Positions 1,631-4,386 of a stretch of 64,000 nt of DNA are shown in pieces. The DNA is from Octopus vulgaris. Lineage: Eukaryota. The stretch covers positions 36,642,001-36,706,000 of the forward strand of contig OX597825.1 of the NCBI GenBank assembly GCA_951406725.2, given 5' to 3'. The translations under genes and the position numbers were made by a program. Each line of letters begins with the position of its first letter. Within the stretch, counting starts at the first letter, position 1. The notes under the pieces are model-generated. The model was given only the letters and a program-made list of their open reading frames with translations, made no database searches and had not been told where the DNA came from.

Positions 1631-2407
1631 GCTTGAGTTTTCTGTTACTTTTTGATATATGACTTAATATTAGCGGGACAAGGAAAGGGATTGATTAGTT
1701 TAACTAAAAATTCTTCAAGATGGAGCTCTAGCATGGCCACTGTCTAATAATTGAAACAAGTAAAAGGATAAAAGTATGCACTTGAGTCAGCATTTCTAGT
1801 CCTTATGAAAAAATAATCTGATGTATTATACTTTTGTGTGATTACATTGATGACTTTAATTATATATGATTGATTATTAACATTATGGATCACATTGCTT
1901 CATTTTCTCTTCAAGTAACAAAATTAATGTAAGATCCTTTTTAATTCCAATATATTCTCAATTATATGGCTCTTACAGAAACCAGTTTGTTACAGAATAA
2001 AGTTTTATTTATTGCAAGAATTTTCAACGAGAAACTCTGAAAATATAATATATGATAATAATGTACATTATTTACAATTAACGGATATTTGTTCTCATCT
2101 TGTTTGTTGTTAACACAACGTTTCAGCTGGTATACCCTCCAGCCTTCATCGGGTGTCTTGAGGAAATTTCAAACCTAGGTTCTCATTCCTAAGGTATTTT
2201 TCGATTTTTCGATATTATTATTATTAATATTATTATTATTATTATTATTATTCAGGTCACAGCTTGGAATTGAACTTGGAATCTTGGGGTTAGTAGCTCG
2301 CGCTCTAAACCTCTATATCATATGCCGTGGCATAGTTGTTAAGATCACAGGCTACTAACTCCAAGATTCCAAGTTCGATTCCAGGCAGTGACCTGAATAA
2401 TAATAAT

Positions 2408-2557
2408 GACGACGACGACGACGACGACGACGACGACGACGACGACGACGACGACGACGACGACGACGACGACGACGACGACGACGACGACGACGACGAC
2501 GACGACGACGACGACGACGACGACGACGACGACGACGACGACGACGACGACGACGAC
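2408..2557. repeat. (GAC)n microsatellite expanded inside the right arm of the palindromic element
   Basis: About 50 perfect GAC units between (AAT)n and (AAC)n; gives the poly-D/poly-T/poly-S ORF artefacts. Confidence 0.98.
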
Positions 2558-2632
2558 AACAACGACAACAACAACAACAACAACATTGAAAAATACCTTA
2601 GGAATGAGAATCTAGGTTTGAAATTTCCCCAA

Positions 2633-2678
2633 GACATCTGATGAAGGCTGGAGGGTATATCAGCTGAAACGTTGTGTT
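2633..2678 (+). ncRNA. Minimal type I hammerhead ribozyme-like motif (PLE type)
   Basis: GACAT-CTGATGA-A-GGCTG(GAGGGTATAT)CAGCT-GAA-ACGT-T-GTGTT: both core boxes, stem II, palindromic ACGT in place of stem III, and stem I GACAT/GTGTT. The mirror copy at about 2112-2157 (-) has a CCGATGA core mutation. Confidence 0.65.
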
Positions 2679-4386
2679 AACAACAAACAAGATGAGAACA
2701 AATATCTGTTAATTGTAAATAATGTACATAATTCCTCATCTCTTAAATATAGAACTGTATGATAATTATGATGTAAATATATTTCAAAATCTCCTTCAGC
2801 TGCATCACAGGTTACTAGGAGGGTCAAGGGTCAAGGATCAAAAGTCCTCCCCAAACCATAGGTTCATAAGGCCAGTTTCCTGGATTCTGTGGTGTCTACA
2901 TTTCCATGCTTGATGGGTTACCACTCCATTGCAGGATTACTCATTTCTCCTGAGTGGACTGGAGCAATGGGGAAATGAAGTGTTTTGCTTTAGAACAATG
3001 CATTGCCCTATCCAGAAATTGAAACCTCAATCTTATGATCATGAGTGCAACACTAACTACTGGGCCATGTGCCTCCACATAAAATGCATTCAGTCATACT
3101 GTAAGACACACACAACAAGGTTAGCCAATCCTCTCAGGTTACTGTGTGCAAAGTAATGAGGACCTCGACAAGATACAGTGGGACTTGTCAAATCCCTCAC
3201 TATCAAGGAAAAAACATATGAACATAAAATGACAATTTGGATATTTTTGCATGTAAATATGAATATATGCTGATATGTGGCTGAATGAATAAAATATGAA
3301 ACCATTTTCTTAAGAATTATGAGATCAAATTTGATATTTTTCTTATTTAATTTCAATATTTGTTTAAAACTATTTTACATCCATTTCTGCATTCCTGGAA
3401 GTGTTCGTTTTGGTTTCTACTGGAGTTATGGCTTTTACAACCATTTCCCCTTTTGGCTGCTAATCACTCAACTTTGGAGCAGGAGTGGAACATCCTTAAA
3501 AAAAAAACAAAAAAAGAAAAAGCAAATAATAAAAAACAACCCCAAAAGTTGAGTGAATTACTGATGGCCTGCTGTGTGGAAGGTGTATAGTAGAAACTTT
3601 TCTGCTACTTATTTTATCAACCCTAAAAGAATAAAAAGCAAAATTAATTGATAAGATATGTAAAAAAAAGAATGAAAAAAAATGCTTATGTATCACTGAA
3701 GGAAGTAAGTTTTGCTTGTGATTACATGGAGACCTAAACAATGAGCAAATATGTGATGCGTACTTACTTGTAAGTGATGGTTGGCTGTACAAGAGGAAGC
3801 CTTTTCTAGGCCTTCTGAAACTGGTCAAGGGAGGGAAGAAAGAAACCACAACTCCTAGTAGGAAGCAGCACAACTTTTATAGTTAGACTGGAGATATGAC
3901 CCAAATGCTTACAACAGAGCAGACTCCCTTAGAAACACCCAAGTGCCAAGTAGTGGTTTTAAACTGAGTGAGAGAGATTAAGTTTACTTCCAAAGACTCT
4001 ATTACAACAATTGTGACTATTTCAATATTTGACTCTGAAAGAAATAAAGCTATTGATCCACTCTGTTGGTTCAATTTAAATGGGAGATATCAAAGGATAT
4101 ATATGATTGATACAAGTGTCCCAATCCCTATAACCAAAAAGTACCCCTGAATATCAATAGCTATGTATATATCCTGAAGATAAAATATTTTCTTGACATA
4201 GATTGGGAAGGTCAGTCAATACTGAAATGCATATACATGCAATACTCCTCATTAGTAGAATTAATTTTGATTTCTTAATTTCTTTATTAATCCAGCCATT
4301 GTGTGCTATGTGTATAAATGTATTATAGTTTTATGTGAATGTTTAGATAAAATTTTTATAAGATATTGCTGAAGTTTCTTTTGGTG

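Follow-up and report, generated by a model that had tools for sequence, protein, structure and literature searches.

Positions 2051 to 2770 of a 64,000-nucleotide stretch of the Octopus vulgaris genome (contig OX597825.1; the window, as we call the whole of the stretch analyzed) read almost as their own mirror image, with two tRNA-like sequences back to back at the centre and a hammerhead ribozyme motif in each arm. This layout raises the question of whether the palindrome is itself a mobile unit or the product of the way in which another element inserts. The initial annotation favored the former: a non-autonomous hybrid of a SINE and a retrozyme that RNA polymerase III (Pol III) transcribes, that the machinery of a Penelope-type element (PLE) mobilizes and that inserts as one foldback. 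The features of this copy, hereafter the focal copy, and of two further copies in the window are as follows.

2051..2063, no strand assigned: left target-site duplication (TSD), 13-nt direct repeat
2057..2213, minus strand: left arm, 3' part of the pLTR; N-terminal codons of the ORF with the hammerhead; short end, without the optional tail
2112..2157, minus strand: left minimal type I hammerhead; core position 4 altered (U4C), predicted inactive
2214..2252, minus strand: left (AAT)n microsatellite, internal to the pLTR
2253..2330, minus strand: left tRNA(Arg)-like head, reaching about position -4; boxes A and B both damaged
2328..2395, plus strand: right tRNA(Arg)-like head, beginning at position +8
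2328-2338, plus strand: right box A, one change
2373-2382, plus strand: right box B, intact
2396..2582, plus strand: right (AAT)n(GAC)n(AAC)n microsatellite, expanded in the focal copy
2583..2733, plus strand: right arm, 3' part of the pLTR; ATG at 2604
2633..2678, plus strand: right minimal type I hammerhead with an intact core and an ACGT palindrome as stem III
2734..2757, plus strand: optional PLE 'tail', on one arm only (long end)
2758..2770, no strand assigned: right TSD, direct repeat
20761..20915, minus strand: third copy, tail only, long end
57342..57849, no strand assigned: second head-to-head copy, with a long left and a short right arm, an intact box A and a TSD of 11 nt

Reading of the sequence and comparison of repeats within the window confirmed the mirrored arms, tRNA-like heads, microsatellite, hammerhead-like motif and flanking direct repeats that had been described at this locus. 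The inverted arms (2057-2208 and 2582-2733) are 94% identical over 152 nt, a second inverted block of 76 nt (2241-2316 and 2332-2407) is 86% identical, and the direct repeats that bracket the copy (2051-2063 and 2758-2770) agree over 13 nt with one mismatch. The boundary of the left TSD is ambiguous, because the RNA at the short end shares the final 7 nt of this repeat. The mirror-image stretch of 701 nt folds with an energy of -388.7 kcal/mol (z -49 against 20 shuffles), and its centre joins the left and right heads over a 3-nt overlap. The two arms had been presented as alike; their inverted match stands but their symmetry does not, since the outer end of the right arm is longer by about 24 nt (2734-2757) and the heads are unequal, the right starting from tRNA position +8 and the left reaching about -4. 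Left box B has one change and neither arm of the focal copy fits the box A pattern; an intact box A is found in the second copy at 57.3-57.8 kb, where the best preserved one had been placed. Program detection of the tRNA and the hammerhead, which had also been proposed, was negative: ARAGORN predicted no tRNA anywhere in the 64,000-nt window, and Rfam found neither motif in the focal copy or in the near-intact copy L169, both programs being run at their default cut-offs. Across the whole window, the 150 of 183 Rfam matches that were listed held only microsatellite-driven miRNA matches. The host genome, of 2.8 Gb, is itself rich in AT and in microsatellites.

Several copies extend upstream of the head into a common sequence that is an ORF for RT and endonuclease, and the partner PLE was traced through this shared flank. 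A protein search gave 149 scored matches, and the best 30 RT-anchored loci were examined. The ORF reaches its end within the locus in 20 of these 30, and in 18 of the 20 the head begins some 30 nt beyond the stop codon. An inverted tail lies upstream of the ORF in 12 of the 30 loci and a direct (tandem) tail leads into it in three. Loci L225 and L230 each hold an inverted pair whose arms include about 1 kb of ORF apiece. Read from an ATG that precedes the hammerhead, the tail shares the frame of the ORF; in the focal copy this is the ATG at 2604, where the frame begins that runs on into the PLE ORF in full-length copies. Hammerhead and AT-rich end thus encode the N-terminus of the ORF, and the tail peptide aligns to the N-terminus of a homolog, P0003 (40% over 226 aa). 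Because head, microsatellite, hammerhead and tail follow the ORF, precede it in tandem copies and end in a tail that is in frame with it, together they are the pLTR of the coding element. An autonomous PLE sharing the tail, which the initial annotation had asked for, therefore exists; since its own ORF is followed by this very head, microsatellite and hammerhead, the element is neither a SINE/retrozyme hybrid that borrows a tail nor a composite SINE2.

The RT domain matches Pfam RVT_1 at E 1.4e-10, with a frame of 569 aa in copy L245, and homologs share the RT and PLE domains, some of them with PF01541. Pfam GIY-YIG gave no match on a 150-aa piece, and the endonuclease motif was recognized by eye; the PDB yielded no relative. 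All ORF copies seen contain stops or frameshifts. No zinc-finger linker lies between RT and endonuclease in L245 or in a second copy, L256, whereas the Neptune-type family of the same genome has one. According to PMC8557442, as far as its available text goes, lack of this linker separates Penelope/Poseidon from Neptune/Nematis. Linker absence, rather than an RT tree, points to a place for the coding element in the Penelope/Poseidon clade. A young Neptune-type PLE of 781 aa was also considered as the partner and rejected, as 0 of 50 loci from a search of the GIY-YIG family shared the tail. A scan of metagenomes returned eight distant relatives (34-42%). None of the four that have sequence behind the ORF (155-258 nt) matched boxes A and B there, and two of the four have the start of a hammerhead core; their number is too small to put a date on capture of the head.

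The footprint of insertion was scored in loci anchored on an exact stem II word. The first 100 exact matches on one contig (C1) gave 85 loci; a sample of 89 was made by dropping eight overlapping or duplicate loci from the C1 set and adding one merged, four random and three window loci. This sample comes mostly from one chromosome end and favors two-armed and young copies; its high stem II conservation is an artefact of the anchor word and was disregarded. Two tails face outward in 55 of the 89 loci, one in 32 and none in two. Paired tails combine a long and a short end in 49 of the 55 and two short ends in five, and the single call of two long ends is the focal copy, mis-scored by over-extension. 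The 3' ends group at positions 138-150 and 172-175 of the 175-nt tail, and a 9-bp stem that resembles the stem-loop at the RT start site described for Poseidon_Ac (PMC11167929) encloses the short end. TSD scores of at least 9 were reached by 27 of the 55 pairs versus 3 of 300 shuffled flank pairs, in a scoring set of TSDs and ends that retained four near-duplicate loci; the TSDs of scored pairs measure 9-14 bp, with a mode of 12, and single-arm copies also bear TSDs. Both outer ends of pairs are retained and the interior varies, from a few nt of one tail up to full heads. Head-to-head pairs predominate, and tandem tails occur in 3 of the 85 loci.

Endonuclease-positive PLEs are described as leaving an inverted, 5'-truncated partner and a tail of 30-40 bp on one end (PMC8557442), and in vitro the Poseidon_Ac protein is reported to cleave and extend both strands and to use two internal RT start sites (PMC11167929). 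Such a mirror layout is what Penelope elements ordinarily produce. Mobilization by PLE RT/GIY-YIG machinery, as first proposed, is upheld as likely. The palindrome as a fixed foldback unit is not, since its centre is variable, which makes it an insertion product. Nor does ribozyme processing define the unit, because the copy ends lie away from the predicted cut site, about 47-59 and 84 nt downstream of it. Copies terminate at two fixed coding positions, with the microsatellite internal, and so lack the 3' poly(A) or simple repeat of a SINE2.

The family is large and decayed. The exact 20-mer of stem II occurs 8,740 times genome-wide (its reversed control, 0 times), and forty fixed stretches of 10 kb (400 kb) held four loci, which corresponds to about 28,000 loci with a Poisson range of 7,600-72,000. 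Other exact words were counted 5,629 times for the head, 579 for the ORF-head junction and 807 for the ORF end. By these counts, from words that differ in length and CpG content, short copies exceed ORF-linked ones about 7-10 fold. Arms diverge from the family majority by 3.8% outside CpG (125 arms, in a sample that favors young copies), and at about 4% from the majority the family has 0 intact ORFs among the 149 scored matches. The same family is present in four other organisms.

The hammerhead is of the minimal type I that had been claimed for it, a PLE type defined in PMC4209133 as far as that source was available. By sequence, it has the extra base before stem II, the G10.1-C11.1 pair and the palindromic 15.2-16.2. 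In the right arm of the focal copy, stem I (2633-2637/2674-2678), core (2638-2644), stem II (2646-2650/2661-2665) and GAAA (2666-2669) predict a cut after 2673, and the closing G-C of stem II is replaced by G-U. The core is intact in 77 of 122 arms, and core and palindrome together in 45 of 122. The only common non-CpG variant of the core falls on position 7, the free one, as T/A in this genome and as T/C in two other organisms; this may reflect coding constraint, because position 7 is also a third codon (wobble) position. No compensatory stem changes were shown, folding of the 51-nt hammerhead surpasses that of shuffles only slightly (z -1.1 and -1.7), the active dimer is not the minimum-energy structure in dimer folding, and the RNA-read joints listed include none at the cut site. 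For Poseidon_Ac, PMC11167929 describes cleavage as protein-assisted and unnecessary for insertion in vitro. The octopus hammerhead is predicted to act as a dimer or with the help of a protein, and the ends of inserted copies would be set otherwise.

The head best matches tRNA-Arg(TCG) (z 12) among 25 distinct host tRNA sequences, a partial set drawn from the 30 best Rfam tRNA matches in the genome. Of 52 full heads, 34 keep box A and 37 keep box B. The cloverleaf is lost, with folding as a tRNA at z +1.1. Twenty of 20 loci chosen by a head word belong to the PLE family or are fragments of it, with the tail within 1 kb in 14, and no other tail linked to the head was noticed among these 20. In three samples of arms that reach the first bases of the head, with three near-duplicate loci dropped, 33 of 45, 16 of 19 and 16 of 18 arms have their 5' ends within -9 to +5 of the head. 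This is a wall of ends, at 9-15% per nt at the head start versus 0.3-0.5% per nt farther upstream. If transcription began with the G at -6, it would do so 13 nt ahead of box A, which is a usual spacing.

We also counted T4 runs on the sense strand of the 2.3-kb ORF. Thirty copies (46.9 kb, with coverage as low as two copies in the 5' part of the ORF) contain 21 runs at 17 sites, none of them shared by more than two copies. L256 has 0 T4 runs in 2,634 nt against 5.9 expected from its composition, with T3 runs at a normal number, and 13 control ORFs contain 73 T4 runs in 19.0 kb, or 3.8 per kb. Under nulls that keep the TT depletion of the element, the absence is no more than borderline, with P 0.064 (Markov) and 0.03 (codon shuffle, in an imperfect frame). 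Phe is encoded by TTT:TTC at 7:15 in L256 and 6:16 in L245; the values set against these are 17:20, 13:17 and, in other controls, TTT-rich usage. RNA reads showed no sharp starts or ends, a weak test given unstranded 150-nt libraries from another organism. The wall of 5' ends and the lack of a shared T4 are as expected if Pol III reads both the short arms and the full element. Judged from sequence, most copies were likely read by Pol III, and the whole coding element possibly was as well. What is new in the family is a tRNA-derived box A/B head that lies within a coding PLE's pLTR, together with the 5' wall and an ORF free of shared T4 runs. No PLE with a tRNA-derived pLTR promoter was found in the literature, including the available text of PMC6962438, PMC5753468, PMC8967140 and PMC13282606, and repeat libraries (Repbase, Dfam) may contain the family.

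Our preferred account, which we consider probable, is that the focal element consists of two head-to-head, 5'-truncated pLTRs of a coding Penelope/Poseidon-type PLE with a tRNA-derived head, likely copied from short Pol III RNAs and likely inserted by the element's own enzyme priming on both nicked strands. The Pol III start would lie some 6 nt upstream of the tRNA-like stretch, a staggered cut about 12 bp wide would come from the GIY-YIG nuclease, and each 3'-OH would prime cDNA at one of two internal start sites some 25-30 nt apart. The two cDNAs would then be joined at their far ends, often via short self-complementary sequence at the RNA 5' end, to yield the mirror centre.

The 5' wall could also arise in an ordinary Poseidon-type PLE read by Pol II, with the tRNA-like stretch a passive relic and the pile-up caused by RT stalling or snapping back at a hairpin at the junction. 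A 10-bp imperfect hairpin does span the ORF-head junction in ORF-linked copies; exact symmetric centres number 351 across the genome, the centre survives at many loci next to only 10-35 nt of inverted head, as snap-back predicts, and Drosophila Penelope is described as having a pLTR promoter with an intron (PMC8557442). We nevertheless regard this explanation as unlikely. A stall predicts stops at the 3' foot of the stem (+10), but the ends pass the loop to -3 to -7; about half of the 33 wall ends, by our reading, run into partner tails, ORF or flank and are not folded back; and the lack of T4 runs and the preference for TTC go unexplained. The symmetric centres bear as well on a model in which the transposing unit is an independent, non-autonomous and palindromic SINE/retrozyme master that its ribozyme processes and that inserts as one foldback via PLE enzymes, an explanation that the excess of short copies would also suit. 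So would a slight excess of letters common to both arms: paired arms share 20 private variants in 53 pairs (null mean 12.8, maximum 23 in 500 shuffles), 11 pairs have the variant subfamily letter in both arms at three sites where about three are expected, with 19 discordant, and the focal copy shares four variants between its arms. This master is nonetheless improbable, and largely refuted by the finding that the head belongs to the autonomous element; moreover, outer ends are constant and interiors variable, inverted pairs of the same kind, with about 1 kb per arm, occur among copies that contain the ORF, no end lies at the cut site and tandem units are rare. Short one-armed masters may well exist; it is the palindrome as a unit that fails.

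Long inverted arms and TSDs are likewise what would be expected of a MITE or foldback DNA transposon whose terminal inverted repeats are long, yet we give that origin almost no credence. The unequal ends of most pairs and the variable TSD lengths are not the fixed-length TSDs and ends of a DNA transposon, whose discovery had been named as contrary evidence from the outset; centres vary, single arms have TSDs too, and arms that continue into an RT/endonuclease ORF refute this origin. Within the account of paired, truncated pLTRs, the recurrent symmetric centres and short inverted heads suggest that snap-back or annealing at the self-complementary RNA 5' end completes some of the insertions.

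In one RNA run of another organism, 10,306 of 12.9 million reads fell on L169. Sites with A>G or T>C of at least 6% numbered 39 on L169 versus 6-8 in three contig sets of other organisms; in the same comparison there were 35 versus 21-23 C>T/G>A sites and 12 versus 3-4 transversions. The spectrum of the excess, 32:13:8, departs from the genomic 15:18:21 and suggests A-to-I editing, in data in which sites are non-independent, one locus may dominate and matched DNA is lacking. Single A>G/T>C sites reach 17-24%, the same share as non-editing changes, which one highly expressed locus may explain. Mapping of reads on another copy, L016, was confounded by that copy's own CpG decay.

Compared with known systems, the family is closest in its layout to Poseidon_Ac of the green anole. 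According to the available text of PMC11167929 and PMC8557442, both have a single RT ORF with a C-terminal endonuclease and no zinc-finger linker, and in both a minimal hammerhead in the pLTR overlaps the ORF start (PMC11167929). Two RT start sites, a one-sided optional tail, an inverted 5'-truncated partner and AT-rich targets are likewise common to Poseidon_Ac or Penelope PLEs, as described, and to the octopus family. In the octopus family the ends fall some 120-130 and 154 nt past the ATG, and the first start of Poseidon_Ac is given as 111-118 (PMC11167929). Unlike Poseidon_Ac as described, the octopus family separates its stop codon from its hammerhead by a tRNA-derived box A/B head and a microsatellite, most of its copies begin at the head, and its sense strand has no shared T4. 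The SINE-like repeats Sm-alpha and Sj-alpha of schistosomes also place a Pol III promoter before a hammerhead, but are described as non-coding tandem repeats freed by cleavage (PMC6765202), whereas the unit here is the dispersed pLTR of a coding element, with Penelope-type ends off the cut site. Animal non-LTR retrozymes are, like the short copies here, non-coding derivatives of PLE pLTRs with type I hammerheads; they are described as head-to-tail arrays with circular RNA, with no tRNA head reported in the text available (PMC7229834, bioRxiv 10.64898/2026.07.22.740005), whereas head-to-head pairs predominate in the octopus. TRIMp3 elements (Cassandra, Helenus, Ajax) share a Pol III promoter derived from a small RNA in the terminal repeat; as described in PMC10886601, they are of the LTR class and only non-autonomous, and here the coding element itself bears the promoter. 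Octopus tRNA-derived SINEs named OK, OR1 and OR2 have been reported, with OR1 listed as a CORE-SINE (PMC4824008, PMC3531059, in their available parts). These too derive from tRNA, and one of them may be the same family.

Textbooks hold that coding retrotransposons use Pol II (Pol I for R2) and that only non-coding ones use Pol III. The available text of PMC10886601 likewise assigns non-LTR elements to Pol II, along with, necessarily, the autonomous partners of Pol III-driven TRIMs, and a coding element read by Pol III would be surprising because of this assignment. As a tentative extension, to which we give somewhat less than even chances, a captured tRNA(Arg) promoter in the upstream pLTR would drive the whole 2.7-kb RNA, with an ORF purged of T4 runs; downstream pLTRs would yield a SINE-like parasite RNA that carries the RT start sites, and some ten thousand hairpin insertions would feed A-to-I editing. 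If true, this would break the textbook split of Pol II and Pol III between coding and non-coding retrotransposons, and it would call for an explanation of how an uncapped RNA made by Pol III comes to be translated and of the role that a hammerhead has just after the start codon. It would also provide a SINE-like family whose partner is a Penelope element and not a LINE, with a simple route of birth. The thousands of short pairs with a long and a short end are a genomic record of two-strand priming at two internal start sites, in agreement with the in vitro work on Poseidon_Ac as described in PMC11167929. Each pair amounts to a near-perfect RNA duplex of 150-250 bp. Octopus is reported to have unusually abundant dsRNA and hyper-editing, with no palindromic repeat named in the available text of PMC5625713, and the PLE pair family is a candidate contributor to both.

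Besides several additional repeat families, the window contains an abundant tRNA-type SINE family, distinct from the family under study and present in many copies. These copies and several other features discussed here are located as follows.

Window 1069-1493, 10019-10250, 39407-39637, 52431-52672, 56670-56906 and more: other tRNA-type SINE family
Window 19456-19899: 147-aa frame resembling a Tc1/mariner transposase fragment
Loci L061-L065 and L076 (e.g. G000:C16:20834000-20842000): Neptune-type PLE
G000:C30:5221180-5221329 (L048): GIY-YIG match
Copies L023, L028, L030, L082 and others: (AAT)n tract with later insertions

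The Neptune-type PLE family of the same genome is young and reaches a high copy number, with 781-aa ORFs, many of them intact, and a second ORF upstream. Its 3' region carries repeated CCAAT/CRE-like motifs, its insertion target is (TA)n, and the scans found no canonical hammerhead. By its appearance, the GIY-YIG match at L048 is probably not a PLE but a host exon, from a gene of the SLX1 type.

One arm of the ORF-containing inverted pair L225 holds an inserted LINE (L225:1700-4500) whose C terminus bears a zinc-knuckle/restriction-like endonuclease region; the locus is segmentally duplicated (L230 and L228). A distant PLE relative on a metagenome contig (L313) shares the inverted terminal arrangement of the studied family and has a hammerhead core ~130 nt past the stop, with no tRNA head.

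Within the studied pLTR family, other short repeats have frequently inserted later into the internal (AAT)n tract, thereby separating head from tail. The usual layout is head-to-head; however, a single pair (L194) is tail-to-tail (convergent), with two long ends. At the short end, a 9-nt unit (tail positions 134-150) is present in 1-3 copies in long and short arms alike, a variation that may reflect slippage at RT initiation.
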